Positions 1-64,000 are shown, counted from the first letter of the stretch. The stretch is 64,000 nt of DNA from an uncultured Chloroflexia bacterium (GCA_963741445.1 CAVUIE010000004.1:187756-251755); one strand, 5' to 3'. The notes: generated by a model not told the origin, from the sequence alone. Translations and numbers: made by a program.

Positions 1-489
1 GGCGGCATCCGAGAGGCCCATGTGCTGGCGGATGGCCTCGGCGATCTGGTAGCCGATGGTGAGCGTCGGGTTCAGGCTGGTGAGCGGGTCCTGGAAGATG
101 AACCCGATCTCCTTGCCGCGCAGCTTGCGGATGCCGTCATTGTTGAGCTTGAGGACGTCGATCCCGTCGAAGGTGATGGAGCCGGCGACGATCCGGCCCG
201 GCGGGTTCGGCACGAGCCGGGCGATCGAGAGCGCGGTCACGCTCTTGCCGCAGCCGGACTCGCCGACGAGGCCGAGCGTCTCGCCGTACTTCATGTCGAA
301 GCTGACGTCGTCGACCGCCTGGACGACCCCGCTGGGCGTGAAGAAGTGGGTCGACAGGCCGCGGACCTCGAGGAGGACGTCGGAGGCCCGTTCGGTCTTC
401 TCGGACGCCTGCAGCGAGGCGCCCGGTTCGAGGACGCCCGGCGTCACTTCGATGATCGTCGGGCGTTCGGCTTCAGGGACGTCGGCGTC
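1..489 (-). CDS. dppD: Oligopeptide/dipeptide ABC transporter ATP-binding protein, DppD/OppD-like. The 3' end lies outside the window.
   Basis: The minus-strand translation contains a Walker A motif (GESGCGKS), LSGGQ-region neighbours and the oligopeptide-ATPase N-terminus ('[19 protein letters not shown]'). A TTG/GTG start overlaps the dppC stop at 499-501. Confidence 0.8.
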
Positions 490-501
490 GGTCGTCGCCA
501 A

Positions 502-1440
502 CTACTGCTTTCCCTTCAGCTTGGGATCGAGGGCGTCGCGCAGGCCATCGCCGAGGAAGGTGAAGCTGATCAGGGCGATCGCGATGCAGATGGCCGGGAA
601 GAGCACGAGGTGCGGCGAGGACAGGATCACCTTCTGGCCGTCGGCCACGAGGCTGCCCCACGAGGCGCGCGGCGCCTGGACGCCGACGCCGATGTAGGCG
701 AGGGTCGCCTCGGCGAGGATGGCGGCGGGGATGCCCAGCGTCACCGCGACGATGATGGGGCCCATCCCGTTGGGGAGCAGGTGGCGCGTGACGATCTTGC
801 GGTCCGACACGCCGATCGCCCTCGCCGCCTCGACGAACTCGGTCTCCTTGAGCGCCAGCATCTGCCCGCGGACGAGTCTGCCGACGGTGACCCAGCTGGT
901 CAGGCCGATGGCCACGAAGACGAGCAGCAGGCCGTCCATCGCCTTGCCGAACGCGGTCTCGCTGAAGACGACCGACAGCAGGATGATGAAGAGCAGGTCC
1001 GGGAACGCGTAGATGACGTCCGTGAACCGCATCAGGAGGTTGTCCGTGCGTCCGCCGAACCAGCCGGCGGCAGCCCCCAGCGGCACGCCGATGGTCAGGA
1101 CGACGACCTGGACCACGATCGCCACGGTCATGCTGATCCGCGCCCCGTCGAGGAGCCGGCTGAGCAGGTCGCGCCCGATCTGGTCGGTCCCCAGGATGTG
1201 GCCGGGGCTGAGCGGTGGCAGCGGCCGTCCGCCGTTGCCGACGACGGCCTTGAGGTCCTGCTCGGTGTACGGATACGGCGCGATGTACGGCCCGATGATC
1301 GCGATCACGAAGAGCGTGATCACCGAGAACAGGCCGACCATGGCCAGCTTGTTCTTGCGCAGCCGGCCGAACGCCTCCCGCCACAGGCCCGTGGAGGTCC
1401 GCGGTCGCGCGATGGTCCCCTGGGCTGCCTGGGTCGCCAT
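502..1440 (-). CDS. dppC: Oligopeptide ABC transporter permease DppC/OppC. The gene is intact at 312 aa.
   Basis: The ORF-track protein 502..1440 has a BPD-transporter signature ('EAARAIGVSDRKIVTRHLLPN') and multiple TM helices. Confidence 0.85.
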   Translation of the reverse strand: MATQAAQGTIARPRTSTGLWREAFGRLRKNKLAMVGLFSVITLFVIAIIGPYIAPYPYTEQDLKAVVGNGGRPLPPLSPGHILGTDQIGRDLLSRLLDGARISMTVAIVVQVVVLTIGVPLGAAAGWFGGRTDNLLMRFTDVIYAFPDLLFIILLSVVFSETAFGKAMDGLLLVFVAIGLTSWVTVGRLVRGQMLALKETEFVEAARAIGVSDRKIVTRHLLPNGMGPIIVAVTLGIPAAILAEATLAYIGVGVQAPRASWGSLVADGQKVILSSPHLVLFPAICIAIALISFTFLGDGLRDALDPKLKGKQ

Positions 1441-1455
1441 GCTCGTCGCTCCTAC

Positions 1456-2374
1456 CTAGCTGTAGCGGATCCGGGGGTCGATGTACGCGTACAGCACGTC
1501 GACCACGAGGTTGAGGAAGGCCACCGCGAAGGCATACAGGATCGTCATCGCCATGAGCACACCGTAGTCGTGCTGGCTGATCGACGTGATGTAGTAGCGG
1601 CCCACGCCCGGGATGGCGAAGATCGTCTCGATGATGAACGAGCCGGTGACCAGGAACGCGAGCGTCGGACCGAGGATGGTCACGACCGGGATGAGCGCGT
1701 TGCGGATCATGTGCCGGGTCACGACGTTGCCGTCGGCCACGCCCTTGCTCTGGGCGGTCCGGATGTAGTCCTTGCGGGTCACCTCGAGCATCGAGGCTCT
1801 CGTGTATCTCGCGATGACGGCGATCGGGAAGCCGGCCAGGGCGATCGTCGGGAGGATCCACGTGTCCGGGCCCTTCCAGCCCTTGGTGGGCAGGACGTGC
1901 AGGGTCACCCCGAAGAAGAGGATCAGCAGGATCGCCAGCACGAAGCTCGGCATCGCGATGCCGATGATCGAGATGCCGGTCGAGAGGTAGTCGGGCCAGC
2001 GGTTGTGCCCGAGGGCGGCGAAGATCCCGAGCGGGATCCCGACGATCACCGACAGCGCGAAGGCCATCAGCCCGAGCTGGATCGTGACCATGAGGCCGCC
2101 GCCGACGATGTCGTTGACGGAGCGGTCGACGAACTTGTAGGACGGGCCGAGGTTGCCCTGCAGCAGGTTGCCCGACCCAGTGGATGTACTGGAGCGGGAT
2201 CGGGTCGTCGAGGCCGTACTTCGCGTTGAGCGCCGCGATCACGTTGGCCGGGAGGGCCTTCTCGCGCGCCCAGGGACCACCCGGGACGGCGTGCATGAGC
2301 GTGAACGTGATGATCGAGACCGCGAAGAGGACCGGGATGATCCACAGCAGGCGACGGATGAGGTACCTGGTCAA
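1456..2374 (-). CDS. dppB: Oligopeptide ABC transporter permease DppB/OppB, with an apparent single-base frameshift near 2170-2180.
   Basis: The N-terminus ('MTRYLIRRLLWIIPVLFAVSIITFTLMHAVPGGP...QYIHWVGQ') is in one frame. The rest ('LLQGNLGPSYKFVDR...IDPRIRYS') is in another. The break falls in the repeat 'ggcaacctgctgcagggcaacctc'. Confidence 0.8.
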
Positions 2375-2525
2375 CGTCTTCCTCGATCGTCCTGGGTTCG
2401 CGCCGTGTCCGATGGTGAGGTCATGTCGCGACCTGGGCCCTGCAGCGCCGACGGCGCTGGAGGGGCCGGGTCGCGGGGTGGGACGCGGAGCGCCCCACCC
2501 TCGTGACGACTAGGTGCCGAAGCTC

Positions 2526-4259
2526 CTAGTGCTTCGCGATCGAGATGTTCTCGTAGAACAGGTCGCCGATGACGACCGAGTCCTGTCCGGTGCCGATGAC
2601 ACCCTGGACCCACGGGCGGACCTCGTAGTTGCTGATGCGCCAGCGGGTGAAGACCGCCGGGGCGTCCTCGACGAGGAGCTCCTGTGCCTGGTTGTAGAGG
2701 GCGATGGACTTGGCCGCGTCCGGCTCAGCGCCGGCCTGGGCGACGAGGGCGTCGAACTCGGGGCTGTTGTACCCCTCGTCGTTGTTGCCGCTCTCGCTCT
2801 GGAAGAGCGCGCGGAGGAAGTTGTCCGGGTGCGGGTAGTCCGCGCCCCAGGCGTTCCGGGCGATCGAGAAGACGTTGCTTCGGGCGGTCGACGACGAACT
2901 GGTCGAACGTCTCGCCCTTGAGCTCGCTCTTGACGCCCAGGTTCTTGTTCCACTGCTCCTGCATGTACGCGGACGTGATCTCGTGACCGGCGTCCGTGTT
3001 GAAGCCGAAGGACAGGACCGGGACCTGGCTGACGTCGCTGTAGCCGAGCTCGGTGAGCGCGGTGGCCAGCTCGGCCTTGGCGGCCGTCGACGTCGTACTT
3101 CAGGCCGATCTCGGGCTGGTGACCCGGCATGCCGGGCGGGATCGGGCTACCGGCGACGACACCCTGGCCGCCGTAGACGGTGGCCATCATGGTGTCCTTG
3201 TCGATCGCCATCGAGAGCGCGCGACGGAAGTGCTTGTTCGCCGTCGGGCCCTTGGTGGTGTCGAAGCCCCAGTAGTCGAAGACGAGGACCGGCTGGGTCT
3301 TGACGAGCGGGCCGAGCGTGGCGTCGGCCTTGATCCGCGGCACGTCCGGCGGGTTCGCCGCCAGCATGTCGAGCTCGCCCGCCTCGAAGGAGGCCTGGTT
3401 CGCCGTGGGATCGCCACCGATGGAGTAGTGGATCTCCGTCAGGGTCGGCTTCTGGCCGTACCAGTTCGGGTTCGGCACGAGGACGATCTCGGACTGGTGG
3501 GTCCAGGACTTCATCATGAACGGGCCCGAGCTGACGAAGTTCTCAGCCTCGGTGAAGTTGGGGGTCTCGACCCACTTCTTCTGGATCGGCGCGGCGCCCC
3601 AGAGGGCGACGATGTCCAGGAAGTACGCGGCCGGGTGGGCCAGCGTGATGGTGAAGGTCTTGTCATCCGGGGCGGCGACGCCGAGCTTGGCGAGGGCCGC
3701 GTCGATGTCCGCATCCGTCGGGGCCGGCTTGGCGCCGGTCATCTTGATGAGGTCCGCGGCGCCGACGACCGGCTCCAGGAAGGCCTGGTAGGTCGAGGCG
3801 GTGCGCGGGTCGGCGAGACGCTGCCACGCGTAGACGAGGTCCGCGGCGACGATCGGGTCGCCATTGCTGTACTTCGCGTCGCGAAGCGTGAACGTGTAGT
3901 TCAGGCCGTCAGCCGAGATCTTGGGGAGCTCGGTGGCGAGCGACGGGACCGGGTTGAGGTCCTTGTCGAAGTAGATCAGGCCCCGGTTGAGCGCGTGCAG
4001 CACGCCGATGTCGGTGCTGGTGGACGCCTTGCTGGGGTCGAGGGTGTCCGGGTCCTCGTTGCCGAGGGTGACCCGGAGGACCTGCTCGTCGGCGAGCTCA
4101 GCCGCCGGCGACGCCGAGGCGACTCGGCTCTTCCGAGGCCGAGGCTGCCGGGCTCTCCGCCGGGGTGGAGGCCGCCGGGGAGGCGCTGCTGGTCGAGCCG
4201 CCACAGGCGGTCACGATCATCACGCCGGCCGCGAGCAGGCCGAGTAGTCGTTTCTGCAT
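2526..4259 (-). CDS. dppA: Family-5 solute-binding lipoprotein DppA/OppA-like, with at least three apparent frameshifts (around 2910, 2975 and 4115).
   Basis: A lipoprotein signal 'MQKRLLGLLAAGVMIVTACGG' sits at 4259 behind a GGAGGAAA RBS. SBP_bac_5 sequence follows through to a C-terminus 'GDLFYENISIAKH*', with the stop at 2526-2528. The body is spread over three frames. Confidence 0.8.
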
Positions 4260-4439
4260 CAACTGTTTCCTCCGAACGGGTGGATACCCGAGTGTTCTCC
4301 CGCAGACACGACCGTTCCCATGCGTTTTCCCAATGTCCGCCCGGTAGGTCCCGCTCATGGACCGGATCGAGACTCCCACTCGATCGGGTTTCAGGGCGAG
4401 CCGAGGCGACAGCACGGTTCGGGTCGGTGCGCTGCCGGT

Positions 4440-4468
4440 ACTATCCACAGCGCCCCATGGGCTGTCAA
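4440..4468 (-). promoter_or_regulatory. Candidate sigma70-type promoter of the dpp operon (TTGACA-17 bp-GATAGT). It precedes a 5' leader of about 170 nt.
   Basis: The minus-strand sequence reads TTGACAgcccatggggcgctgtgGATAGT, in a GC-poorer intergenic stretch between the gcvPB stop and the dppA start. Confidence 0.4.
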
Positions 4469-4515
4469 CCTCGACCTAACGAACGTTCGTACGGCGACGT
4501 GCGCGAGCGTCGGCG

Positions 4516-6019
4516 TCAGTCCGGGCACGGGGTCTGGGCGCCGGTCATCGCGCGCCAGCGCAGGTTCGGCTGACGCGCCGCGGTCGCCTCGTCGAGGCGC
4601 CGGACCGGGGCGGTGTGCGGGGCGCCCGTGACCATCGTCCGGATCGCGCTCGGCCTCGGCGACGATCTCGGTCAGGGCGTCGGCGAACGCGTCGAGCGTC
4701 TCGACCGATTCGGTCTCCGTCGGCTCGATCAGCATCCCCTCGTCGACGATGAGCGGGAAGTAGATCGTCGGCGGGTGGAAGCCGTGGTCGATGAGCCGCT
4801 TGGCGATGTCCAGGGTCCGGACGCCGGTCCGCTTCTTGATCGACGTGGCCGACGCCACGAACTCGTGCTTGCAGGCGCGGTCGTACGGGATGTCGAACGT
4901 CCCGGCGAGCCGGTGCTTGAGGTAGTTGGCCGCGAGGACCGCGTCGTCGCTGACCTCGGCGAGGCCCGTCCCGCCGTGGGCGCGGATGTACGCGTACGCG
5001 CGCACGAGGACGCCCGGTGTTGCCGACGAAGCTGCGCAGCCGCCCGATCGAGGTCGGCCGCTCCCCTTCCAGCTCGAGGCGGAAGGTGCCGTCGTCCTCG
5101 CGCAGGACGCGCGGCGTCGGGAGGAACGGGACCAGCCGCTCGCCGACGCCGACGGGACCGGCGCCCGGGCCGCCGCCGCCGTGGGGCGTGCTGAACGTCT
5201 TGTGGACGTTGAAGTGCATGACGTCGAAGCCGGCCTCGCCGGGCTTGAAGCGGCCCAGGATCGCGTTGAGGTTCGCGCCGTCCATGTAGGCGAGCGCGCC
5301 GGCCTCGTGGACCGCGTCGAGCAGCTCGCCGATCCGCGCCTCGAACAGGCCGAGCGTCGACGGGTTCGTGATCATCACGGCGGCGGTCCGCGGGCCGAGG
5401 GCGGCCCGGAACGCGTCGACGTCGACGCCGCCGTCCGCGGCGGACGGGACCGTGATCGTCGTGAAGCCGGCCATCGACGCGGTCGCCGGGTTCGTGCCGT
5501 GCGAGCTGTCCGGGACGAGCACCTGGTCGCGGTCGGCGTCGCCGCGCGCGCGGTGGTAGGCGCGGATCATCAGGATCCCGGTCAGCTCGCCCTGCGCCCC
5601 GGCCGCGGGCTGGAGGCTGACCGCGCGCATGCCGGAGATCTCCGCCAGCGCGCCCTCCAGCTCCCAGAGCAGCTGCAGCGTCCCCTGCGCGACGGCGTCC
5701 GGCGCCAGCGGGTGCAGGTTGGCGAAGCCCGGCAGGCGGGCGGCCCACTCGTTGAGCTTCGGGTTGAACTTCATCGTGCACGAGCCGAGCGGGTAGAACC
5801 CGGTGTCGACCGCGAAGTTCAGCTGCGACAGGTTGACGTAGTGGCGGACGACGTCGGGCTCGTTCATCTCGGGCAGCGCCGGCGGATCGCTCCGCAGCGC
5901 GCGCCGGCCGGGATGCGGTCGAGCGCGTCCTTGGGCGGGTGCGGGATCTTGCCGCCGCCGCGACCGGGGCGGCTGCGCTCGAACAGGGTCGGCTGGAGGC
6001 GCGGGCCGGTGACGCTCAT
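4516..6019 (-). CDS. gcvPB: Glycine dehydrogenase (decarboxylating) subunit 2 (GcvPB), with frameshifts around 4610, 5015 and 5890.
   Basis: The N-terminus is '[22 protein letters not shown]'. The core includes '...[14 protein letters not shown]...'. The C-terminus is '...AERDPD|[27 protein letters not shown]'. Confidence 0.85.
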
Positions 6020-6029
6020 GCGCGGACCC

Positions 6030-7439
6030 CGCGACCGTGCCCGCGCCGGCCTCGACGGCGGTCGGCGGTCGCCCTGGAGGACGTCGCCGAGGGCCTCGGC
6101 GAACCGGGCGATCTCGGCGCTCGTCGTCACCTCGGTCGCGCAGACGAGCAGGCCGTCGGCGAGCGATCGGGTCGTCGGGGACCGCGTCGGCGAGGACGAG
6201 GCCGGCGAGGACGCCGTGGTCGAGCAGGCGCCGGTGGACCGCGGGCGCGTCGGGGACCCGGACGACGAACTCGTTGAGGTACGGGACCGGGATGGAGCCG
6301 CGGGGCGCCGACGGCCGGCGAGCGCCGCCTCGAGCTCGGCCGCCCGCGCGGCGCCGAGCGCGGCCACGTCGCGCAGCCCGTGCGGGCCGATGACGGCGAG
6401 GTAGATCGAGCGCGGCCAGCGCGAGCAGCGCCTGGTTCGTGCAGATGTTGCTGGCCGCCTTGTCGCGGCGGATGTCCTGCTCGCGCGCGCGCATCGTCAT
6501 GACGAACGCGCGCTGGCCGTCGAGGTCCGTGGTCATGCCGACGAGCCGGCCGGGGATCTGGCGGACGAGCGCGTCGGTCGAGGCGAGGATGCCGAGGTAC
6601 GGGCCGCCGTACTGCGGCGCGATGCCCGAGCGGCTGGCCCTCGCCGGCCGCGATGTCGGCGCCGTAGGCACCGGGCGGCGCGAGGACCGCCAGGCTGACC
6701 GGCTCGATGACCGCGACGAACAGCGCGCCGGCCGCGTGGGCGAGCTCGCCGATCGCGGGCATCGGCTCGAGCAGGCCGAGGAAGTCGGGCTGCGCGGCGA
6801 TGACGCCGGCGACCGGCCGGTCCGGATCGGCGAGCATCCGCGCCAGCGCCTCGAGGTCGGTGGTCCCGGCGGCCGGCCCGTCGGCGACGAGCGGGATCTC
6901 GTCGAGCTCGAGGCCGCCCGCCGAAGTAGGTCCGCAGCGTGCCGCGGTAGTGCGGATGGACGCCCGCGGCTGACGAGCACCCGCTCCCGGCGGGTCGCGC
7001 GGCAGGTCATGAGCGCGGCCTCGGCGGTCGCGGCCGCGCCGTCGTAGTGCGAGGCCGAGACGACGTCGAGGTCGACCAGCTCGGCGATCAGCGACTCGTA
7101 CTCGTAGATGCTCTGGAGCGTGCCCTGGCTGACCTCGGGCTGGTACGGCGTGTAGGCCGTGTACCACTCGCCGCGCAGCAGGAGCTGGTCGACGGCGGGC
7201 GGGCTCCAGTGGCGGTAGACGCCGGCGCCCAGGAACGACACGAGGTCGGTCCGGTTGCGCCCGGCGAGCGCGGTCAGCCGCGCGGCGAGCTCGAGCTCGG
7301 GCTCGGGCGGCGGCAGGTCGAGCGCGCGACGCGCGGAGGCGCCTCGGGGATGTCGGCGAAGAGCTCGTCGACCGAATCGAGGCCGATGGCCTCGAGCATC
7401 CGCGCCCGATCGGCGGCGGTATGGGGACCGTAGGGCATC
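6030..7439 (-). CDS. gcvPA: Glycine dehydrogenase subunit 1 (GcvPA), with multiple frameshifts.
   Basis: The N-terminus '[34 protein letters not shown]' begins at 7439. GcvPA-like sequence continues across several frames down to the gcvPB start. Confidence 0.8.
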
Positions 7440-7446: not shown

Positions 7447-7828
7447 TCAGCCCGCGGCGATGAGCGCGTCGTAGGCGGCCGCGTCGAGCAGGTCGTCGAG
7501 CGCGCCGGCGTCGGCGACCCGGACGCGGATCATCCAGCCCGCGTCGTACGGGTCGCTGTTGACCAGCTCCGGGCTGCCGCCGAGCGCGTCGTTCGTGGCG
7601 GTCACCTCGCCGCCGACCGGGGCGAACAGGTCGCTGACCGCCTTGACCGACTCGACGACGCCGAACGTCCCGGCCGCCTCGAGGGCCTTGCCCGACCGCC
7701 GGCAGCTCGACGAAGACGATGTCGCCCAGCTGGTCGGCGGCGTAGGCGGTGATGCCGACGATCGCTTCGTCGCCGTCGAGGCGGACCCATTCGTGGTCCT
7801 TGGTGTAGCGCCGGTCATCGGGGACCAT
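7447..7828 (-). CDS. gcvH: Glycine cleavage system H protein, with a frameshift around 7700.
   Basis: '[43 protein letters not shown]' lies in one frame. '[29 protein letters not shown]...' with the lipoyl-lysine region lies in another. Confidence 0.85.
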
Positions 7829-9012
7829 CGCGGGCGTACCTCCTCCTGGTGCGGCGCGATGCCGCAGGCGACCAGCGGTCGGACCGTGCCCGACGCCTAC
7901 GCCGGGCGGCGGTAGAACGGCAGGTCGACGACCCTCGCGGGGACCCGCGCGTCGCGGATCTCGACGTCGACCATGGTACCCGTCTGCGACATCGCCCGGC
8001 GCGACGTAGGCCATCGCGATCGGCACGCCCAGGGTCGGCGACTGGGTCCCGCTGGTGACCACCCCGGTCCGCCGGTCGCCGACATGGACCGGGTACCCGT
8101 GGCGGGCGATCCCGCGGCCCTCGACGACCAGGCCGACGAGGCGCTTCGACGGCCCGTCGGCGGCGATCCGCTCGAGCGCGGCGCGCCCGACGAAGTCGCC
8201 CGGCCTTGTCCAGCTTCACGACGCGCGCGAGGTTCGCGTCGAACGGCGTCGTCTCGAGGTCCAGCTCGTTGCCGTACAGCGGCATCCCGGCCTCGAGCCG
8301 GAGCGTGTCGCGGGCGCCCAGCCCGACCGGCACGCCATCGGCGTGCGCGCACGCCGTCGAGCAGCGCGTCCCACAGCTCGCCGGTCCGGGCCGTGTCGAC
8401 GAAGACCTCGAAGCCGTCCTCGCCCGTGTAGCCGGTCCGCGCGACCAGGGCCGGGATGCCCGCGACGCTGCCCTCGGCGATCGCGTAGTAGCGCAGGCCC
8501 GCCGAGGTCGACGTCGGTCAGCGGCGCGAGGATCTCGCGCGACCGCGGGCCCTGGACGGCGACGAGGCCGGTCGCCAGCGAGCGGTCGTCGAGGACGGCC
8601 TTGAACGGCTCGAGACGCTGGGCGAGCGCGTCGGAGACGACGTCGGCGTTGCCGGCGTTGGCGACGACGAGGAACCGGTCCTCGGCCGAGCCGGTAGACG
8701 ATCAGGTCGTCGATGACGCCGCCGTCGGGCGCGCAGATCATCGAGTAGTGGGCGCGGCCGATGGCGAGCGACGGCGGATCCGTGACGAGGGCGGCGGCGA
8801 GGCCGGCACCGGCGTCGGGGCCCTCGACGAACAGCTCGCCCATGTGCGACAGGTCGAACAGCCCGGCGCGCTCGCGGACGGCCTTGTGCTCCTCGAGGAT
8901 CGAGCCGTACTGGACCGGCATCAGCCAGCCGCTGAACTCGATGAGCCGCGCCCCGAGCGCGACGTGACGGTCCTGGAGCGGCGTCTGCCTGGGGCGCCTC
9001 CGGCTCCGTCAC
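7815..9012 (-). CDS. gcvT: Aminomethyltransferase (glycine cleavage T protein), with frameshifts. A GTG start overlaps the nudix stop as GTGA.
   Basis: '...[52 protein letters not shown]...' is a GcvT N-terminus. The C-terminal part is in other frames. Confidence 0.85.
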
Positions 9013-9477
9013 GAGGCGTCCCCGGCGACGCCCTCGGCAGCGCCGGCCACGAGCTCCGCGGCCCGGCTCACGAGCGCGCGCTCGGTCTCGAAGGTCAGGA
9101 CGGAGGCCGCCTCGTCGAACGGGATCCAGCGGACCTGCTCGAACTCGTGGTCGTGGTCGCGCCAGGTCGCCGCCGGTCGGCTCCATCAGGAAGTAGTGGA
9201 CCGTCTTGTGGATGCGCGTCCCGGACTGGACGAAGAAGTACTCGATCGAGTCGAGCGGGCCGGTGATCCGCACCTTGAGGCCGGTCTCCTCGGTCACCTC
9301 GCGGATCGCGGTCTCCTCGGTCGTCTCGCCGCTCTTGGGCGTGCCCTTGGGGAGGGTCCAGGTCCGGCCGTCGCGCTCGCGACGACGGCAGCCGACGACG
9401 AGGTATGGCTCTCCGGCCTCGTGACGAACGACGACCCCGCCGGCGGAAGTGGCGGTCGTGGTCCTCAGCCGCGCCAC
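9009..9477 (-). CDS. Nudix hydrolase, with a one-base insertion near 9135 after the Nudix box.
   Basis: The Nudix box reads 'GETTEETAIREVTEETGL'. The tail 'DWRDHDHEFEQVRWIPFDEAASVLTFETERALV...' is in a shifted frame. The break falls in 'ggcgacCtggcg'. Confidence 0.7.
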
Positions 9478-9785
9478 GGCGCCGAGGCGGCGCTGGGACG
9501 CCGGGCCGCCGCGGCCCGCTCGGAGCGGGTCCAGTGCATCACGATCGCGTGATGGGGGCGACCAGTCGATGGACGCGGGCCGGCCGGCCGGATCGAGCGC
9601 CAGCGCCCGCGCAGGCTCGTCAGCGGCGCCACGTCCGGGCGGCGCAGGACGGTCGCGGTCGTGACGGCGGGGCGGAACGCGGAGGCCGAGACGAGACCCA
9701 GCCGCCGCTCACGCGCCCGGGCCGAGGCACGGACGAAGTGGGCCGCCGGCCGGGCCGCGTACTTGGCGGCGATGCTGTGGTCCAT
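9465..9785 (-). CDS. Small Arg/Ala-rich hypothetical ORF of 106 aa between nudix and the DUF2520 gene. It may be non-coding.
   Basis: The ORF-track entry starts 'MDHSIAAKYAARPAAHF...'. It has no recognisable domain and overlaps the nudix start. Confidence 0.2.
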   Translation of the reverse strand: MDHSIAAKYAARPAAHFVRASARARERRLGLVSASAFRPAVTTATVLRRPDVAPLTSLRGRWRSIRPAGPRPSTGRPHHAIVMHWTRSERAAAARRPSAASAPWRG

Positions 9786-9806
9786 CGAGCCTATGGTACC
9801 GGTTCA

Positions 9807-10866
9807 GTCCTGCCTTGCAAGGGCGGCACGCACGACTTCGGCGCGCTCCGTTGCCAGCGTGCCACGGGCCACGGCCAGGTCCATCTCCCGCTCCGCCAGC
9901 GCCCGATAGAGCGGCAGCGCGCCGGGGGCGCTCGGCGCGCAGCGCCGCGAGGTGCGCGTCGAGCGTCCCGATGTCCCCGCGGGTGATCGGCCCGGTCAGG
10001 GCCGCCGCGATCCCGAGGGCCCGGGCGTTCCCCAGCGTCCCCTCGATGAGCGGGCCGTAGATCGCGAGGGCGCCCGCCTCGTCGAGGCCCGCCACCCGGC
10101 CCAGCGTCGCGATCGCGTCGAGCAGCGCGACGAACCCGCCGGCCGCGAGGACCGCGGCGGCGTGGTAGGCCGCCTTCGAGCCCGGCGCGAGGCGGACCGG
10201 CCGGGCGCCGAGCGCCTCGGCCATGTCGGCCAGCAGCGCCGCCAGCTGGTCGTCGGCCTCGATGGCGATGGTCGCACCGTGGAGCGCGGCGACCGCCCGC
10301 TCCGTGTCGGCGAAGGCGACCAGCGGATGGAACGCGCCGACCTGCGTGCCGGCCGCCTGCGCCGGCGCGAGGACGTCGGCATCGAGCGCGCCGCTGGTGT
10401 GGACCATGGCCTGGCCGCTGTACATCCGGATCGTCCGCGCGAGCGGCGCGATGGCGTCGTCGGGGACCGCGACGATGACCAGCTCGACGTCGTCGAGGAG
10501 CGCCTGCGGCTCGGCGAAGGCGCGCACGCCGTCGACCTTCGAGCGGAAGCGCTCGCGGCGGGCCGCGCTCCGGCTGGCGACCGCCTGGATCGGCCAGCCG
10601 GCCCGGGTCAGCGCCACCCCGAGCGCGGTCCCGACCGCGCCCGCGCCGATGATCCCGATGACCGGCGGCTCACCCGGCTCGGCGTGCCGATGGGGATGCT
10701 GATGGTCGCTCTCGTGGACCTCGTCGCCGTGGCGGTGCGAGCCGGGCGGAGCCGGGTCGAGGTCGATGCCGGCGGCCTCGATCGCCGCTTCGGTCTCGTC
10801 GCGCGCCTGGGCCGTCGCCGGGTCCTCGCCCGGCGGCTCGCGCCACGCCCTCATCGGCCGGCGGCC
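9807..10866 (-). CDS. Rossmann-fold NAD(P)-binding oxidoreductase (DUF2520 / ProC-like family) with a His-rich N-terminal extension. There is a frameshift in a CCCCC run near 9890.
   Basis: The dinucleotide-binding motif reads 'VIGIIGAGAVGTALGVAL'. The His-rich stretch 'SHRHGDEVHESDHQHPHRH' precedes it. The C-terminus '...LAALRAER|PGALPLYRALAEREMDL...RQD*' is in a shifted frame. Confidence 0.55.
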
Positions 10867-10926
10867 GCGATGGTCGGACGGTCGCGGTACGCTTGCACCC
10901 GTCGAGTGTAGCGAGCCAGCGAGGAA

Positions 10927-13775
<2,849 letters not shown>

Positions 13776-14369: not shown

Positions 14370-14876
14370 TCAATCCCAGATGTCGACCAGCGGCAGGCCG
14401 GCGCGCGAGAGCGTCTCGTTGATCTCGGTGATGTGCGAGACGTCGTGGGCGAAGGAGCGCGAGATGACCTCGCCGCGGGTCTGGGCCTCGTCGTCGCCCC
14501 ATTCCTTGTGGCGGACCTTCTCGCCGAGCATCGCCGGGGTCCATCGGTCGAGCGCTCCCTCGACGATGCGGAACGTCGAGTCGAGCGCGACGACCAGGTC
14601 CGAGGCGCTGAGCACGTGCTCGAGGTCGTCGTCGCCCGGGCAGTCGTACGAGGCGTTCGTGAACGGCGTCGTCTCGGCGCCGGGCTCGCCGGCGACATCG
14701 CACAGCCCGAAGACCCGCTGGCAGGCGAGGTGGCCGATCGTCGCCCACAGCGGCCAGCGCTCCGGCGACGGCTGGATCGCCAGCTGGTCCTCGGTCAGCA
14801 CCGCGACCGCGTCGCGAAGCTGCCTGTTGTAGTGCGGCCACTTGGGGTAGGCGAGGCGGATCGTGGGCTCGGTCAT
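14370..14876 (-). CDS. DinB/YfiT-like (DinB_2) metal-dependent hydrolase/transferase family protein. The gene is intact.
   Basis: The 168-aa ORF has a DinB_2-like layout ('WPLWATIGHLACQRV...FAHDVSHITEINETLSRAGLPLVD'). Confidence 0.65.
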   Translation of the reverse strand: MTEPTIRLAYPKWPHYNRQLRDAVAVLTEDQLAIQPSPERWPLWATIGHLACQRVFGLCDVAGEPGAETTPFTNASYDCPGDDDLEHVLSASDLVVALDSTFRIVEGALDRWTPAMLGEKVRHKEWGDDEAQTRGEVISRSFAHDVSHITEINETLSRAGLPLVDIWD

Positions 14877-14906
14877 GACGTCAACGATACCGAAGGCATC
14901 GCCCTG

Positions 14907-15404
14907 TCAGGGATGGTCGAGCTCGGCCAGGACCTCGGCCATCTGCTCCAGATGTTCGCGCTCGTGCGCGGCCAGCCAGTCGCCGTAGAACTGGGCGGTC
15001 CGGTCGCGAGCCTCGCCGGTCGGCTCGGTCACCCTGGCCGCGCGCGCCCAGACCTCCGGCGACAGTGGCGCGATCACCTCGAGGAGATCGGCTCGTTGCG
15101 CCTTGAAGGCAGCGAATGCGGGCCCGAAGGCCCACCTCGGATAGTCGGTCCTGCGCATCCATGCCCGCGGGCTCAGGCGCCTCCACGACGGGGCGTCCTC
15201 GCGCAGGATCCTGAGGATGCTCCCGCCGAGGACGTCATGGCTGGCCCGGAGATGCGCGAGAAGGTCATTGACCGACCAGACATCGGGTCCGGGCGAGGCG
15301 TGCAGCCGCGCCGGCGCGACGCCATCGGTGAGCGCGGCGATCCGCGGCACGCTCGTCCGCAGGATGTCCAGGATCTCGTCGACCGGAAGGACGGGCTTCG
15401 CCAT
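14907..15404 (-). CDS. Second DinB_2-family protein (paralog). The real start is MAKPVLPV at 15404.
   Basis: 'MAKPVLPVDEILDILRTSVPRIAAL...LLAHLRASHDV...AHEREHLEQMAEVLAE' follows. The upstream extension in the ORF track ('GHWFESS') is just the translated tRNA. Confidence 0.65.
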   Translation of the reverse strand: MAKPVLPVDEILDILRTSVPRIAALTDGVAPARLHASPGPDVWSVNDLLAHLRASHDVLGGSILRILREDAPSWRRLSPRAWMRRTDYPRWAFGPAFAAFKAQRADLLEVIAPLSPEVWARAARVTEPTGEARDRTAQFYGDWLAAHEREHLEQMAEVLAELDHP

Positions 15405-15423
15405 GTCCGTGTCAGGAGGGGAG

Positions 15424-16650: not shown

Positions 16651-16684
16651 CTGGTCGTGATCCGGTGGCGTCACCACCGGCGGC

Positions 16685-46804: not shown

Positions 46805-46968
46805 GTCGCCCCTCGGCGATGGCGGGCCGTCTGGCCACGCTCGATGAGTATGGCGAGGCGACCCTCGCGGTTCGTTCCCGAATCGATGGCGCCCGCCGGT
46901 CCCGGACGGGTCGGACGCGGTACCATCGCCCTCCCGTCCCGACCGTCGCCGGAGGCCCTCGTCCGCCC

Positions 46969-49027: not shown

Positions 49028-49038
49028 GCGCCGTCCCC

Positions 49039-50394
49039 ATGGACCCCGACCTCATCCTCCGCGGGCTCCAGGACAGACGGCCGCGCACCGAGGTCATCGG
49101 GCGCGACCACCCGGAGTTCGACGCCGCTCGACGCGTCTGGAACGGGATCGCGGACCGCCGGCCAGCCGCGATCGTGCGGGCCAACGACACCGACGACGTG
49201 GTCGCGACCGTCCGGTTCGCCGCCGACCACGACATCCTCCTCGCCGTCCGCGGCGGCGGGCATAGCCTCCCCGGACTGTCGACCTGTGATGACGGGATCG
49301 TCCTCGACCTGTCCGCGATCAGGGAGGTCTCGATCGACCCGGAGCGGCGCCTCGCGACGGTGGGCGGCGGCGCCCGCCTTGGCGACCTCGATCTGGCCGG
49401 CTCGCGGCACGGCCTCGCGACGCCGGCCGGGGTCATCTCGCACACCGGCGTCGGCGGCCTGACCCTGGGCGGCGGGATGGGCTGGCTGGGTCGCCGGCTG
49501 GGCCTGACCATCGACAGCCTCGTTGGCGTCGAGATCGTCCTCGCGGACGGCCGTATCGTCGAGGTGGACGCCGAGCACGAGCCCGAGCTCTTCTGGGGCC
49601 TTCGCGGCGGCGGCGGCAACTTCGGCGTCGTGACGTCGTTCCGCTTCCGGATGCACCCGCTCGGCGACGTCGTGATCGGTTCGTGGGAGTTCCCGGCCGG
49701 CAGCGCCCGGGACGTGCTCCATCGGTACGCGGAGCTCGCCGCCGATGCCCCTCGCGCGATCACCAGCTCGTTCACGATGACGTCGTCCGTCGTGTCCATC
49801 ACGGCGGCCAGCTCCGGCTCGCAGCCAAACGCCCTCGAGGCGATCGACCGCTACGGGCGTGTCGGGACGCCGACGGCGGCCTCGCTCGGCGAGATGACCT
49901 TCCTCGAGCTCCAGTCGAAGGGCGACGAGCACATGCGCTGGGGTCGTCGCTGCTACGCGAAGGGCGGCTTCCTGGCGTCGATGGACGATGCCGCGATCGG
50001 ACGCATCGAGGAAGCGGCCGCACAGACGCCTTCGCCCGATGCCGAGATCTACGTCATCCAGCTCGGCGGGGCGATCAGCGATGTCGATGACGGGGCGACG
50101 GCATACACCGGGCGCGGCGCGGGCCACTACTGGATCGTCGAGCCGGTCTGGGACGATCCGGCCGATGACGCGGCCTGCCTCTCATGGGGACGCGAGTACG
50201 CCGGACGGATGGCCGAGCAGTCGCTCGCGGGCAACTACGTCAACGAGCAGGCGGACGCGGACGCGAGCGTTGCCCGCTCGGCGTATGGCGGCGAGACGTA
50301 CGCCCGCCTGACAGCGCTCAAGACCCGGGTCGACCCTGCCAACGTCTTCCGGCTCAATCAGAACATCGCCCCAGCGACGAGTCCCGTCGGATGA
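49039..50394 (+). CDS. FAD-linked oxidoreductase (FAD_binding_4 plus BBE-like C-terminal domain). The gene is intact at 452 aa.
   Basis: '...[48 protein letters not shown]...' is followed by a C-terminal '...[45 protein letters not shown]' BBE-type tail. Confidence 0.75.
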
Positions 50395-53315: not shown

Positions 53316-54404
53316 ATGACGACTGGCCCGCAGCCTCGGTACGGGACCGTCCCCGAGGCGTCTCGAGCCCGATGGGACGACTGGGCGACGAGCAGCCCGA
53401 CCGGACACATGCACCAGACGTTCTGGTGGGCCGAGCCGTTGCGCAACTACGGTCTGGCTCCCGACGTGGTGGCCGCATGGGCCGACGGCGAACGCCTGCT
53501 CGGTGGGACCCTCTTTCGATGTACGAAGATCCCACGTCTTCCGGCACAGATCGCGGAGTCGCTGGACGGACCGGCGTTCGAACGATGGGATCCCTCGTAC
53601 GCCACGCCGTACGCCGCGGCGATCGCCGACTTCGCCAGCCGATCGCGCGCCCTGGCGGTCGTCGTCCGCGATTGCCCCGACCCCGACATCCATCGGGACC
53701 TCGTGGAAGCGCTTCGCCGTCTGCAGGGCGATGTCGTCCTCTCCCGGGGCGTGACCGAGGCCGTGCTGCACCTCGACGGCCAGACGAGCGAAACGCTCTG
53801 GCATGGCTTCAGCCACGGGGTCCGCGGCAGTATCAAGAAGGGTCGATCGAATGCCGTGCAGATCGTCCGTCTCGAGGATCCGGAGGGACTCGCGGCCGCC
53901 TACGAGACGTGGCTGGCGACAGGGCGACGCAAAGGCTTCGAATCCGTTCGACCCTGGCCCGCCCTCGAGCCGGTGCTCGGCCACAGCGTCTCGTCGGGAG
54001 CGGGCATCGTCTTCGGCGCGCTCGTGGACGGCCACGTGATCGCATCGATCTTCGTGACCTACATCGGACGGGCCGCGGTCTACGTCTACGGCGGCCACCT
54101 CGACGGAGCCGAGCGTTACTCGGCGGCTCACCTCCTCCAGCTGACGGCCATCGAGGAAGCCATCGCTCGCGGACTGCCCATCTATTCGTTCGGCGCGCTT
54201 CCGGCGCATGGCGATCCCGAGAAGAGCGGCATCGACAGGTTCAAGCTGTCGTTCGGGGCCGTCCCGCGGCCGGCGCTCGACACCATCACGTGGCGGCGGC
54301 GGGTGATCCTGTACGAGAGCCTGACACGGTTCCGGACACACCCCGTCGGCATCAGGATCGAACGGGCGCTCCGGCGGAGGGCGGCCGCGAACCCGTCGAG
54401 TTGA
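53316..54404 (+). CDS. FemAB-family / GNAT-fold peptidoglycan-bridge-type acyltransferase-like protein. The gene is intact at 362 aa.
   Basis: The overall FemAB-like layout ('...[11 protein letters not shown]...[26 protein letters not shown]...[23 protein letters not shown]') is present. The assignment is tentative. Confidence 0.45.
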
Positions 54405-58137: not shown

Positions 58138-59690
<1,553 letters not shown>

Positions 59691-59844: not shown

Positions 59845-59929
59845 CGAAGGGCGTAGAGTTGCGCCCCACGCTTCCCCGTCCCCGCCGATGCGGGATGCCA
59901 AACGGACGACGATTCGAGGTGATGCCCCG

Positions 59930-60702
59930 GTGACGAACGTGATCGCGATCGCGAACCAGAAGGGCGGCGTCGGCAAGACGACCACCGCGATCAACCTCGC
60001 CGGTGCGCTTGCCGAAGAGGGCCATCGCGTCCTGTGCATCGACATGGATCCGCAGGCGAACCTGACGGCGGGTCTCGGCATCAACCTCAACACCGTCGAG
60101 CGCTCGATGGCGGATGTGCTCGCGGATGGACGGGCCACCCTGGAGGACGTGATCCTTCCGACCGAGATCGCCGGCATCGACGTCGCGCCGGCGCACATCG
60201 ACCTCGCGTCGACGGAGGGCGAGCTGTTCACGGCGCTCGGTCGCGAGCAGATCCTGCGCGAGGCGCTCGAGGGTCACGTGAGCGACGTACGAGTACGTGC
60301 TGATCGACTGCCCGCCCAACCTCGGCCTGCTGACGGTCAACGGGCTCGTCGCGGCGAACGGGGTGATCATCCCGGTCCAGACGCAGTACTACGCGATGAA
60401 GGGGCTCAACAACCTGGTGAAGGTCATCAACCTGATCCGGGTCAAGCTCAACCGCGACCTGCGGATCCTCGGCCTGCTGCCGACCTTCTTCGACGGCCGG
60501 ACCAACCTCGCGCGCGACATGCTCGACGAGCTGCGCGTCGTCGGCGACCACCACGTCTTCAACAGCATCGTGCGCAACACCGTCAAGCTCGGTGAGGCGC
60601 CGCTGGTCGGACGCCCCATCACGTCGTACGCCACCACGAGCGATGCCGCCCGCACCTATCGCGAGCTGGCACGGGAGGTGATCGACCTTGTCCCGGCCTG
60701 AT
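59930..60702 (+). CDS. parA: Chromosome partitioning ATPase ParA/Soj, with a single-base insertion near 60285.
   Basis: A GTG start sits behind a GAGGTGA RBS. '[46 protein letters not shown]' is the deviant Walker A. Then '[40 protein letters not shown]...' continues in the +1 frame. Confidence 0.85.
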
Positions 60703-61725
60703 TTCCGAGCCGCGGCCGCGCGGCGACTGTCCGAGGATCGCGAGCTCTCCCCCGCCATCGTCAGCCTGCTCGGCTCCGACGGGCCGGTCCGGTCGGTCGG
60801 CGTGCGCATCGTCGCCATCGATCGCATCGAGCCGAACCCCGAGCAGCCGCGTCTCGCGTTCGACCAGGCGACACTCGACGAGCTGGCCGCCTCCATCCGC
60901 GAGCATGGCGTCCTCCAGCCGATCCTCGTCCGCCCGCTCGACGGCACGCGCTTCCAGCTGATCGCCGGCGAGCGCCGCTGGCGCGCGTCGCGTCTCGCCG
61001 GGCTCGACACCATCCCGGCGCTGATCGAGGAGATCGACGACGACACGGCGCTCGAGATCGCGATCATCGAGAACCTCCAGCGCGAGGACCTCTCGCCGCT
61101 CGACGAAGCGGCGATGTACGACCGCATGGTGCGCGAGCACGGCTACAGCATCCGCAAGCTGGCCGACAAGCTCGGCAAGGACAAGGGCTATCTCGAGAAC
61201 CGCCTTCGCCTGGCCGACGCCCCGCCCGAGGTCCGCGAGCTGGTGTCCTTGCGCAAAGACACGCTCTCGCATGCCTACGAGCTGATGAAGGTCGACGACC
61301 CGCGCAAGCGACGACGGCTGGCCGCGCAGGTCGCCCGCGGCGAGCTGACGCTGGTCAAGCTCCGGGACAAGATCGAGGGCCGTCGCACCCGTCCGGCTCC
61401 CGACGAGCCGGCCGACCGAGCGTCGAGGTCGAGGTCGACTGGCCGGTCGGCCGCCGTCGCGGCCGCCGGCGCCGGCGCCGGCCGGCCCCCGAGGAGGACT
61501 GGTCGCCCGTCGCCCGGCAGCCGATCGGCGAGAACTCGCTGGTCGACGCGAAGCAGCGCCTCGGCGACGCGGTCGAGGAGCTGGTCGACGTCCTCCGCGA
61601 TCCCGACGGTGCGCCACTCGATCCCGGACACCGACCGGGCGAACCTCGCGAAGTACCTGACGATCTCGAAGCTCAAGCTCGAGAACGTGATCGCGATGGT
61701 CCGGAGCGACGAACCGGGCGGCTGA
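60688..61725 (+). CDS. parB: Chromosome partitioning protein ParB/Spo0J. There may be a frameshift in the low-complexity C-terminal third.
   Basis: A TTG start precedes 'IVAIDRIEPNPEQPRLAFDQATLDELAASIREHGVLQPILVRP...FQLIAGERRWRASRLAGLDTIPALIEE'. This includes the ParB box and HTH. Confidence 0.8.
   Translation: MSRPDFRAAAARRLSEDRELSPAIVSLLGSDGPVRSVGVRIVAIDRIEPNPEQPRLAFDQATLDELAASIREHGVLQPILVRPLDGTRFQLIAGERRWRASRLAGLDTIPALIEEIDDDTALEIAIIENLQREDLSPLDEAAMYDRMVREHGYSIRKLADKLGKDKGYLENRLRLADAPPEVRELVSLRKDTLSHAYELMKVDDPRKRRRLAAQVARGELTLVKLRDKIEGRRTRPAPDEPADRASRSRSTGRSAAVAAAGAGAGRPPRRTGRPSPGSRSARTRWSTRSSASATRSRSWSTSSAIPTVRHSIPDTDRANLAKYLTISKLKLENVIAMVRSDEPGG
61245..61260. promoter_or_regulatory. Palindrome copy 3: GTCcTTGcgCAAAGAC, inside the parB coding sequence (candidate parS-like site).
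   Basis: It encodes ...S-L-R-K-D... using the rare codons TTG and AAA in a genome whose codons are about 90% GC3. Confidence 0.5.
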
Positions 61726-61728
61726 CGA

Positions 61729-62590
61729 TCAGGACTGGGCGGTGACCACGCCCAGCCACCCGACCGCGAGCACCGCGATCCCGACGGCCTGGAGTTCCCA
61801 CGCGCGCTCGCGCCGCTCCGGCCGGGCCCGGTAGCCGAGCGGCGGCGCCCGCCAAGGAGCAGCCCCGCACCCGCGATGACCCCGACCAGGCGACGCGCCG
61901 GGCCGCAGACCCGGCCGCCACGGCGTCCAGCACCGGCCCCGCCGCCACGGCAAGGATCGCCACGATCAGGGCGAGCGCGAGCCACCACGAGCGCTCGAGG
62001 CCCGAGCGCGGTCGCCACGGAGGCGACGCCCGCCGCCCGGTCCCGCTCGACGTCCGCGCGGGCATTGGAGATCGCGACCACGGCCCCGGCGAGCACGGCC
62101 GCGATGACGAGGCGGCCCATGAACGACGGCAGCGACCCGGCGGCCCCGAGCCAGGCGAAGACCGGGAGGAGCGGGATCCCGACCGCGAACGGCGCCCACG
62201 ACCATGGCGTCCCCTTGAAGCGGAGGTCGTAGGCGTAGCCGATCGCGAGGATGACGGCCGCGACGGCCACGACGGCCGGCCCGGATGGCACGGCGAGCGC
62301 CAGACCAAGCGCCGCGGCCACCACCAGGCCGGCGCGCGCCCGACCGGGGCTCGACCAGCCCGGCCGGGATCGGCTTCGACGGCTTGCGGCCGGCGTCACG
62401 CGGCGCATCGACCACGTCGTTGAGGATCCCGATCGACGCCTGCAGGGCCGTCATCGAGACGCCGAGGCGCACCGCCGTCGGGCACGTCGCCCGCCGGCGA
62501 CGAGGGCGATCGCGGCCGTGGCGACCCCGTCGAGGAGCGACGGGAACGGGTGCGTGAGCCGGACCCAGCCGGCCAGGCGGCCGGCGAGGG
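61729..62590 (-). CDS. UbiA-family prenyltransferase, with frameshifts.
   Basis: The first Asp-rich motif 'LNDVVDAPRDAGRKPSKPIPAG' and multiple TM helices are present ('...AVVAVAAVILAIGYAYDLRFKGTPWSWAPFAVGIPLLPVFAWLG'). Confidence 0.7.
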
Positions 62591-62622
62591 ACCCCTCCCC
62601 CGGTCGAGGCGCTCCGGGCGCC

Positions 62623-62988
62623 TCAGACGTAGACGATCTCCTCGAAGTTCTCGACGAGATACTCGATGAGCCGGTCCCGGCCGTCCTTGACCTGGGCGTG
62701 GATGCCCGGGACGAGGGCGAACAGGGCGATCGCCGGCACCATCAGGTGGCCGTCGCGGTCGCGGCCGATGCTCGCCGGCGGCCCGCCACCGGAAGCGAAC
62801 ACCCGTTCGAAACTCGGCTCGTCCAGGCGGGCGGCGCGGCGGAAGTCCTCGACGACCCGGACCACGCCGCGGCGGATCGCCACGTCGCGCATGGTCTCGG
62901 CGGCCCAGGCGTCGATCTGGCCATCGCTCTGGTCCCCGAGACGGGTCCGGTATTCGCCCGGATCGCCCGACAGCCCGGTATCGCCCAC
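62623..62988 (-). CDS. Hypothetical protein of 121 aa. The gene is intact.
   Basis: 'MGDTGLSGDPGEYRTRLGDQSDGQIDAWAAETMRDVAIRRGVVRVVEDFRRAARLDEPSFERVF...LIEYLVENFEEIVYV' matches no domain I can name. Confidence 0.4.
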   Translation of the reverse strand: MGDTGLSGDPGEYRTRLGDQSDGQIDAWAAETMRDVAIRRGVVRVVEDFRRAARLDEPSFERVFASGGGPPASIGRDRDGHLMVPAIALFALVPGIHAQVKDGRDRLIEYLVENFEEIVYV

Positions 62989-63039
62989 GGTCCCTCCTGC
63001 GCCTGCGTCAACGGCCCGAAGTATGCCAGAGCACGCTCG

Positions 63040-63830
63040 TCAGGCGGCGGTCGGGGCGTCCGTCCGATCGGCCGCGGAGGCGGCCTGGGCCGCCTCGCGG
63101 GAGCCCTCCGGCCACTCGTTGAACTGCTCCGTCAGCCAGCGCCCGACCCGGCCCGGCGGCGCCACCGGTGGGGCGTCGCGGACGAGGTCGTGGAGACGGG
63201 TCCACAGCTCGGCGGTCAGGCCGTCGATCGCCTCACGGGTCGGCCGGCCGCTGACCGCGAACGGCTCCCCCACCACGACGCGGACCCGGCCGCCGAAGCG
63301 CAGCCAGCTCGTGCCGTTGATCGCGATCGGGACCAGCGGGACGCCCGAGCGGATCGCGAAGTACGCGGCGCCCTCGCTCAGCGGGCAGCAGGTCGGTCTC
63401 GCCGGGATGGATCCGGCCCTCGCCGGCGATCGCCACCACCCCGCCGCTGTCGATCGCGGCGGCCGACGCGCCGGGTCGCCTCGAGGAGGTCGTTCTTCCC
63501 GGGCTTGTACGGGATCGCCGTGCCGGTCCAGAACATCACCCGGTTCCGGCCGCCGACCCGCATGTCCTCCTCCTTCGGGCCGAAGAAGAAGAGGCGCGGC
63601 CGCCACGGCAGCGTCGCCATCAGCATGAACGGGTCCGACCAGCTCAGGTGGTTGAAGCAGTAGATCGCCGGGCCGGGCGGGAGCCGCTCGCGACCCTCCA
63701 GCCGCGGCCGCATCCAGGCGCGGGTCATCGTCGACGCCGCGATCCGGGACACGTAGTAGCGGATCGAGCGGCGGATCGGGTGGACCGCCGCGCCGGCCGG
63801 GGGCTTGTCGGCGCTCATGGCCGTGCTCAC
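63040..63830 (-). CDS. 1-acyl-sn-glycerol-3-phosphate acyltransferase (PlsC-like), with a frameshift.
   Basis: The HX4D motif reads 'CFNHLSWSDPFMLMATLPW...FFFGPKEE'. A later 'FAIRSGVPLVPIAINGT' lies in another frame. Confidence 0.6.
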
Positions 63831-63849
63831 GGGTCGGCGCTCGACCGCG

Positions 63850-64000
63850 TCGGGGTCGAGGTCGGCGAGCCGCTCGAGCACGAGGTCGGCGAAGTCGGTC
63901 GGCGCCCGGCGCCGGCGGGACGCTGTCGTTCGGGACGAGCACGACGGTCATCCCGGCCGCGCGCCCGGCCGCGGCCCCGTTCCGCGAGTCCTCGACCACG
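63850..64000 (-). CDS. HAD-family hydrolase. Only its C-terminal end falls in the window (partial).
   Basis: '...VEDSRNGAAAGRAAGMTVVLVPND' resembles HAD motif III with a trailing Asp. Confidence 0.35.

Follow-up and report, generated by a model that had tools for sequence, protein, structure and literature searches.

Pervasive frameshifts in core genes of a Limnocylindria metagenome contig are very probably consensus errors, not mutations

A 64,000-nucleotide (nt) stretch of DNA from an uncultured Chloroflexia bacterium (GCA_963741445.1 CAVUIE010000004.1:187756-251755), which we refer to in its entirety as the window, carries core genes whose reading frames are broken repeatedly by insertions and deletions (indels) of one or two bases. 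Its gene order is dppBCA, gcvPB/PA/H/T, acnA, yggS, ftsZ/A, the dcw cell-wall cluster, sdhCAB, icd and sucCD, followed by a propionyl-CoA carboxylase and mutase group, parAB and ubiA. A first-pass annotation made from the sequence alone had listed single-base frame changes in 27 of these genes and ascribed them to assembly error at G/C homopolymers. The locus therefore raises the question of whether these genes are truly damaged, and, if they are not, what kind of error has broken them. Our analysis indicates that the indels are very probably consensus errors in a long-read metagenome-assembled contig of Limnocylindria (Chloroflexota) built from too few reads, and not mutations. Beneath these indels the genes themselves are whole, and purifying selection on them is normal.

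The window has a G+C content of 73% and contains 252 open reading frames (ORFs) of at least 100 amino acids (aa). Because spurious ORFs abound in DNA this rich in G+C, we followed the true frame from codon-position G+C by means of a seven-state Viterbi path. The path makes approximately 100 frame switches, often within what should be a single gene, and these switches match base-level events wherever both exist. As the first-pass annotation had cautioned, the ORF track mis-segments the window. For example, the ORF at 46819-50394 joins in-frame and out-of-frame parts of sucC, sucD and an oxidoreductase gene, and the ORF at 27263-29701 (+) is antisense.

To polarise each indel, the window was placed in multi-way MAFFT alignments with relatives of 87-97% nt identity. 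These were found via AcnA and MurF homologues and their contigs, and in some cases by exact RsmH/MraZ match. The nearest MurF relatives in a one-genome-per-species collection all come from metagenome-assembled genomes (MAGs) of Chloroflexota/Candidatus Limnocylindria, many of them ‘MFD’ long-read MAGs. The relatives, with their nt identity to the window, are as follows.

L161: ERZ25039554 contig_11053, 91%
L162 and L164: ERZ25039533 contig_27947, 87-88%
L163: ERZ25039539 contig_3384, 87%
L165: ERZ25039502 contig_376, 91%
L166: JGI contig, 88%
L167 and L168: JGI contigs, 95.2% and 91.6%
L169-L173: long-read contigs found by exact RsmH/MraZ match, 93-97%
L174 and L175: SPAdes short-read contigs found by exact RsmH/MraZ match, about 96%

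The ENA identifiers of the sister assemblies are ERZ25039533 (L164), ERZ25039490 (L170), ERZ25039594 (L171), ERZ25039520 (L172, which is 97.3% identical to the window) and ERZ25039488 (L173). For the interval 48.7-64 kilobases (kb) there was no close reference; a metagenome scan with the biotin carboxylase returned relatives only 42-53% identical, too distant to serve. Events in this interval are G+C-frame switches with approximate positions. A frameshift-aware protein-to-DNA aligner was also written for this analysis. A tblastn search with all ORFs of 80 dcw loci was set aside for per-gene reading because many of its ‘reference ORFs’ were out of frame or antisense in high-G+C DNA; its junction calls were usable, and alignments with closer relatives were used in its place.

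Between 889 and 48717, leaving aside a 3.6 kb insert in murD that is described below, the alignments reveal 88 frame-breaking indels that are private to the window. The 38.4 kb outside this insert between 889 and 42929 account for 72 of them (58 of +1, six of +2, six of -1 and two of -2), a further 14 lie between there and 46640, and two fall in sucC and sucD. Tracking of the frame contributes about 15 additional events in the remainder, as far as 64000. Insertions outnumber deletions by about 8:1, and events are of 1-2 nt only. This load is well beyond chance: in the same alignments L161, L163, L165 and L166 have 0-2 such indels each. No nonsense substitution or larger gene-internal deletion was seen in the aligned genes. 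Bacterial mutation has a deletion bias, the opposite of what is found here.

Once the private indels are deleted, 34 aligned genes have no in-frame stops, exhibit 74-99% aa identity and give ratios of nonsynonymous to synonymous substitution (dN/dS) of 0.03-0.41. Identity and dN/dS past the first shift are mostly the same as upstream of it. In gcvPB and gcvPA, removal of the indels leaves no stops, 95% aa identity to L161 and dN/dS of 0.08-0.09. The more accurate contigs lack the lesions. L167, a JGI contig aligned at 95.2% identity over 30863-34656 (3.8 kb), shows only five gaps, which correspond to the window's five ftsI insertions, and its FtsI is an intact ORF of 610 aa. Likewise, the short-read contig L175 (95.7%) is without the events at 34088, 34167, 34291 and 34787. 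Among relatives of 96-97% identity, none shares a lesion with the window.

Similar lesions recur at other positions in the sister assemblies. We compared private 1-nt insertions among nine assemblies in an 8 kb block of the dcw cluster (28969-36920), where the window has eight, L164 18, L172 12, L173 10, L171 five, L170 two, L165 one, and L163 and L166 none. The insertion positions all differ between assemblies, and private deletions number six in L164 and at most one in any other. Moreover, 35058-36869 holds 11 events in L164 and none in the window, and 29541-30635 holds seven in the window and none in L164. Because these dense patches do not overlap, the cause is specific to each assembly rather than to sequence context. 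Taken together, the private nature of the indels, their absence from accurate contigs of the same or a sister species (L166, L167 and L175), the intact selection and the recurrence elsewhere establish an artefact rather than biology as the better account, and the first-pass preference for assembly error over pseudogenes is thereby upheld.

The gene calls of sister assemblies are also fused or fragmented: L170 has an FtsI-MurF-MraY product of 1412 aa, and in L172 SdhA and SdhB are fused into 906 aa.

Indels outside the murD insert occur at 1.9 per kb overall, but unevenly: some blocks of about 1-9 kb have none and others reach about 4-9 per kb. The events are over-dispersed (dispersion index 1.92, P ~0.001), with 12 pairs within 50 nt of each other against 6.4 expected. 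G+C content was considered as a cause of this patchiness and was dropped, as it has no correlation with indel density (rho = -0.02). The first-pass annotation had described the error as dependent on context or coverage. This lack of correlation and the differing patches of the sisters favour a cause tied to the individual assembly, for instance its coverage or read support.

Frame changes are present in all 27 of the genes originally named, as judged from alignments, G+C-frame switches and NCBIfam matches. The number of events per gene had been underestimated in several cases, however, and murD, with five insertions and the 3.6 kb insert, had been missed altogether. The features of the window are listed below.

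1456-2374 (-): dppB, one event, +1 at 2171 (three-way alignment with L161 and L162)
2526-4259 (-): dppA, three events, +1 at 2877, 3082 and 4123 (three-way alignment with L161 and L162)
4260-4515: dppA-gcvPB spacer, +2 (TT) at 4266 and +1 at 4295 and 4334
4516-6019 (-): gcvPB, three events, +1 at 4638 and 5012, +2 at 5897
6016-7438 (-): gcvPA, about ten events, including -1 at 6072 and +1 at 6167, 6286, 6317, 6411, 6624, 6917, 6962, 7323 and 7339
within 7447-10854 (-): gcvH, one event, +1 at 7683
within 7447-10854 (-): gcvT, six events, +1 at 7990, 8202, 8344, 8498, 8686 and 8990
within 7447-10854 (-): NUDIX gene, one event, +1 at 9160
within 7447-10854 (-): DUF2520 gene, one event, +1 at 9931
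10925-13775 (+): acnA, four events, +1 at 10978, 11012, 11149 and 11342
within 15923-19380 (-): yggS, four events, +1 at 16193, 16441 and 16495, +2 at 16636
within 15923-19380 (-): ftsZ, one event, +1 at 16910
within 15923-19380 (-): ftsA, one event, +1 at 18840 (18839 by frameshift-aware protein alignment)
within 20743-25200 (-): ddl, one or two events, +1 at 20849
within 20743-25200 (-): murB, intact
within 20743-25200 (-): murG, one event, +1 at 23428
within 20743-25200 (-): ftsW, three events, +1 at 24406 and 24446, +2 at 25090
25197-25368 (-): murD 3′ end, last 56 codons, open to the stop codon
25369-28968 (-): nonribosomal peptide synthetase (NRPS) insert, 3600 nt inside murD
28969-30354 (-): murD 5′ part, five events, +1 at 29541, 29642, 29911, 30065 and 30293
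30354-31342 (-): mraY, two events, +1 at 30420 and 30635
31339-32769 (-): murF, intact, 476 aa; an error-free stretch used as control
within 32766-35000 (-): ftsI, five events, +1 at 33146, 33174, 34089, 34167 and 34291
within 32766-35000 (-): ftsL-like gene, one event, +1 at 34787
35280-36715 (-): rsmH and mraZ, intact; the exact proteins are present in other public assemblies
within 40178-44700 (-): sdhB, one event, +2 at 40206
within 40178-44700 (-): sdhA, five events, +1 at 41400, 41425, 42427 and 42884/6, +2 at 42918
within 40178-44700 (-): sdhC, one event, +1 at 43245
within 40178-44700 (-): icd, one event, +1 at 44303
44914-46300 (-): PD40/Tricorn-like gene, a patch dense in errors (12 private indels), among them +1 at 44917, 45254, 45573, 45585, 45651, 45853, 46127 and 46168, +2 at 45551, -2 at 45495 and -1 at 45056
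within 46965-49019 (+): sucC, one event, +1 at 47671 (pairwise alignment with L172)
within 46965-49019 (+): sucD, one event, +1 at 48678 (pairwise alignment with L172)
49020-50380 (+): FAD-linked oxidoreductase, one frame, intact
53316-54401 (+): FemAB-family gene, intact, 362 aa
54678-58157 (-): methylmalonyl-CoA mutase N-terminal domain, biotin carrier protein and biotin carboxylase, each single-frame
58140-59654 (-): pccB-type carboxyltransferase, four switches, near 58505, 58939, 59212 and 59489 (G+C-frame Viterbi path)
59926-61839 (+): parA, one switch, near 60288, and parB, two, near 61417 and 61600 (G+C frame)
within 61840-63897 (-): UbiA-type prenyltransferase, three switches, near 62000, 62328 and 62488 (G+C frame)
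within 61840-63897 (-): acyltransferase-like gene, two switches, near 63382 and 63453 (G+C frame)

The indels at 4266, 4295 and 4334 lie in a spacer, and therefore non-coding DNA is affected as well. In acnA the 11342 event is confirmed by the JGI contig L168, and the 2.4 kb that follow it are free of indels. The extra bases in sucC and sucD relative to L172 fall at G+C-frame switches. When repaired, several proteins match their NCBIfam models in one unbroken stretch: TIGR01117 at 14-512 of 512 (pccB), SucC at 2-383 of 388, SucD at 1-286 of 291, SdhA at 5-610 of 631 (above the curated cut-off) and ICD at 2-335 of 335. Full-length NCBIfam matches likewise cross the repaired junctions of parA and ubiA, and those of the sdhB-sdhA-sdhC-icd block, as single stretches. 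The genes that had been reported as intact (murF, the biotin carboxylase, the FAD oxidoreductase, the FemAB-like gene at 53316-54401, rsmH and dppC) are indeed so.

Three regions of the window deserve separate mention. L172 joins the equivalent of position 44913 straight to 46897 and so is without the PD40/Tricorn-like region (44914-46896), which is present in the window, L170 and L173; its loss from L172 may be a real deletion or an assembly problem. A full-length bacterial RNase P RNA of class A (38663-39033 (-), 175 bits) lies between a LysM gene and a META-domain gene, with several small indels relative to relatives at 38605-38660, just outside and near its 3′ end. Beside tRNA-Val (15424-15500), the variable region at 14864-15423 behaves like a hot spot for changes in gene content: about 3.5 kb with cydAB and a guanylate cyclase occupy this location in L161 and are absent from the window, and L162 has other genes again.

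If assembly error is responsible, do the extra bases arise from miscalled homopolymer lengths, as first supposed? Among 57 resolved 1-nt insertions, 36 (63%) are of a base unlike both neighbours and 21 (37%) extend a run. Random insertion with matched base composition gives 47-48% and 52-53% for these two classes, and a slippage model predicts 0% and 100%. No resolved insertion lies inside a run longer than three, although the window has about 400 homopolymers of at least four, and the longest run within 5 nt on either side averages 2.4 at the insertion sites and 2.29 at random sites. At 73% G+C, almost any site adjoins a G/C run. The indels consequently do not cluster at G/C homopolymers, and the proposed mechanism is contradicted by both the excess of insertions and the depletion of homopolymer contexts.

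The four sites that had been offered as homopolymer examples agree with this result, in that each extra base is beside a run and not in it. At 5012 in gcvPB an extra G stands between C and C, at 9160 in the NUDIX gene an extra C stands between G and G, and at 30420 in mraY an extra C follows GGG. At 9931 in the DUF2520 gene the extra C is 6 nt from a run of five G residues, and that run differs from L161 by a substitution. The inserted bases track base composition, and insertion between identical flanks (GCG, CGC) is enriched, at 26% in the window and 35% in L164 versus 15% under the null. In L164, 77% of insertions are unlike both neighbours and 23% extend a run. Position-specific composition around the sites gave no strong sequence motif, with minus-strand coordinates that may be off by one; site context was therefore assessed only by the flank-class test in alignment coordinates, and no motif is claimed. 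The combination of identical-flank enrichment and homopolymer depletion may be a recognisable mark of a consensus or polishing step.

The murD gene is affected in a further manner, being split by 3600 nt (25369-28968; 75.6% G+C), a figure that may be off by a few bases where the alignments end. In all relatives murD is uninterrupted and encodes 520-524 aa. Alignment to them stops at 28969 and resumes at 25367-25372, and the insert is absent from ten of ten relatives, as determined by blastn or alignment for L163-L166 and L169-L173 and from the intact murD gene call for L161. Read on the murD strand, the insert codes for the latter half of an adenylation domain (AMP-binding in Pfam, 216-384 of 384), followed by AMP-binding_C, a carrier domain (PP-binding), a domain of the condensation/epimerization type (Condensation, 4-362 of 456) and the opening third of a further condensation domain (2-148). 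The adenylation, carrier and condensation domains stand in NRPS module order, and all 120 listed homologues are NRPSs. The insert is nonetheless an incomplete gene, starting in the middle of an adenylation domain and ending in the middle of a condensation domain.

Frameshift-aware alignment of the insert to ten NRPS homologues gives 31-53 frameshifts. Two references that span it entirely give about 50, or about 14 per kb with insertions exceeding deletions by about 3:1, which is about seven times the indel density elsewhere in the window. Its best homologues share 64% identity (one reaches 74% over part of the query); those with a source name come from Byssovorax and Longimicrobiaceae, with no Limnocylindria among them. 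A donor of the fragment was sought, but its homologues are too distant to name one. A mobile element or group II intron was also rejected, as Pfam reports only NRPS domains and Rfam no intron; the only Rfam matches in the window are the RNase P RNA and a tRNA. No target-site duplication is visible at the junctions, although no dedicated repeat search was made. The insert is most likely a poorly supported chimeric stretch that does not belong in murD.

Other explanations of the indels must account for the same observations. The given sequence does contain the frameshifts, and the organism, or the relic DNA of a decaying population, could in principle harbour about 100 of them in its core genes. 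Reductive, pseudogene-rich genomes such as those of Mycobacterium leprae and recent endosymbionts also have regions with many frameshifted genes. Unlike such genomes, the window is without nonsense mutations, larger deletions, relaxed selection or sharing with relatives, and essential division and cell-wall genes are all struck. A cell with lesions in ftsZ, ftsA, ftsI, ftsW, mraY, murD, murG, ddl, sdhABC, icd, acnA and sucCD would not be viable, dN/dS stays at 0.03-0.41 downstream of the shifts, no lesion is common to the relatives of 96-97% identity, and like lesions arise independently in five other assemblies. Genuine pseudogenes are thus extremely improbable. The preserved coding potential, and nothing beyond it, would also suit real frameshifts that are fixed by programmed ribosomal frameshifting, transcriptional slippage or RNA editing. 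We discount this idea almost entirely, since the sites have no slippery runs and are conserved in no relative, and spacer DNA is affected as well. Wrong G/C run lengths, as in 454, Ion Torrent or older Nanopore consensus, would explain why 21 of the 57 resolved insertions extend a run of two or three and why several sites are beside GGG or CCC. This is very unlikely to be the general cause, because the inserted base matches neither neighbour in 63% of cases, insertions that extend a run fall short of the random expectation in the window and more so in L164, and no resolved insertion lies in a run longer than three. Finally, co-occurring strains could have been collapsed into one contig, in place of low coverage as the source of error. 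Several populations of 93-97% identity co-exist in the same ENA sample series, and patchiness could track local strain divergence. We regard such a mixed-strain consensus as unlikely, though deserving of some weight: coding differences between strains are substitutions and indels of multiples of three, not 1-nt insertions found in no relative, and it would in any case be a variant of the artefact explanation.

For the NRPS fragment, the competing view is that some cells really carry it, as a structural variant that arose by illegitimate recombination. The insertion is clean, with murD resuming on both sides and at most 4 nt lost, which simple read chimeras would not easily make, and its G+C content is near that of the host. 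Against this, it is absent from all the relatives compared, would inactivate an essential single-copy gene, has ends that fall in mid-domain with no mobile-element features, and returned no close NRPS homologue and no named hit from Limnocylindria. The sevenfold indel density, furthermore, fits support by one or very few reads. A structural variant is accordingly improbable, though not negligibly so. There is very little chance that the murD::NRPS junctions are real in the DNA of a sub-population, or that the insertions are real and removed at the RNA level, and the sequence offers no support for either.

We therefore favour consensus error in a contig built from too few reads, with low and uneven read support as the probable cause. 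The typical error is one spurious extra base between unlike neighbours, with deletions and 2-nt insertions fewer. The insert is probably a piece of contig backbone with next to no support from other reads (a chimeric path), left at near-raw read quality. Sister assemblies suggest that the technology was Nanopore sequencing with Flye and Medaka, and the nearest neighbours of the window are ENA ‘contig_N’ assemblies in the MFD style. For the MFD long-read MAG catalogue, Nanopore-only data were assembled with Flye (--meta --nano-hq) and passed through Medaka once, and its authors note that coding density falls in MAGs of lower coverage (PMC12313526). With R10.4 data, about 40x coverage is required, and bins of low coverage still have to be polished (PMC9262707). 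Gene-fragmenting indels in low-coverage Nanopore assemblies have been described for Flye/Medaka MAGs, are measured by IDEEL-type tests and can be repaired by proovframe and Kastor (PMC9262707, PMC12313526, bioRxiv 10.1101/2021.08.23.457338, PMC12007338). The window resembles these cases in that indels of 1-2 nt break conserved ORFs at a density that varies with the assembly and are missing from short-read contigs of that taxon, and in that sister MAGs are likewise affected. The insert resembles metagenome chimeras and misjoins in that an unrelated NRPS piece lies within a conserved operon, is found in no relative and has much lower consensus quality.

Two points weigh against this explanation. 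The literature on low-coverage Nanopore MAGs stresses homopolymer indels as the textbook signature, whereas the window has an insertion bias of about 8:1 that is enriched at GCG/CGC and depleted in runs, and we found no published description of such a signature. The clean arrangement of murD, NRPS and murD, in which one gene borders the insert at either end and has lost almost nothing, is also unlike simple end-to-end joins of reads or genomes.

The value of these findings is practical and not biological: they provide a list of error coordinates, a non-homopolymer insertion signature that sister public assemblies share, and a warning about the NRPS fragment. This contig is not a reliable basis for gene calls, counts of pseudogenes, estimates of completeness or protein clusters, and broken or fused products of sister assemblies are already in public protein collections. 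Correction tools that address only homopolymers would miss most of the errors here. Because the extra bases sit between unlike neighbours, frame-aware or reference-guided repair, or short-read polishing, is needed. The NRPS fragment in murD would be counted as biosynthetic potential of Limnocylindria, although it is probably foreign to that genome.

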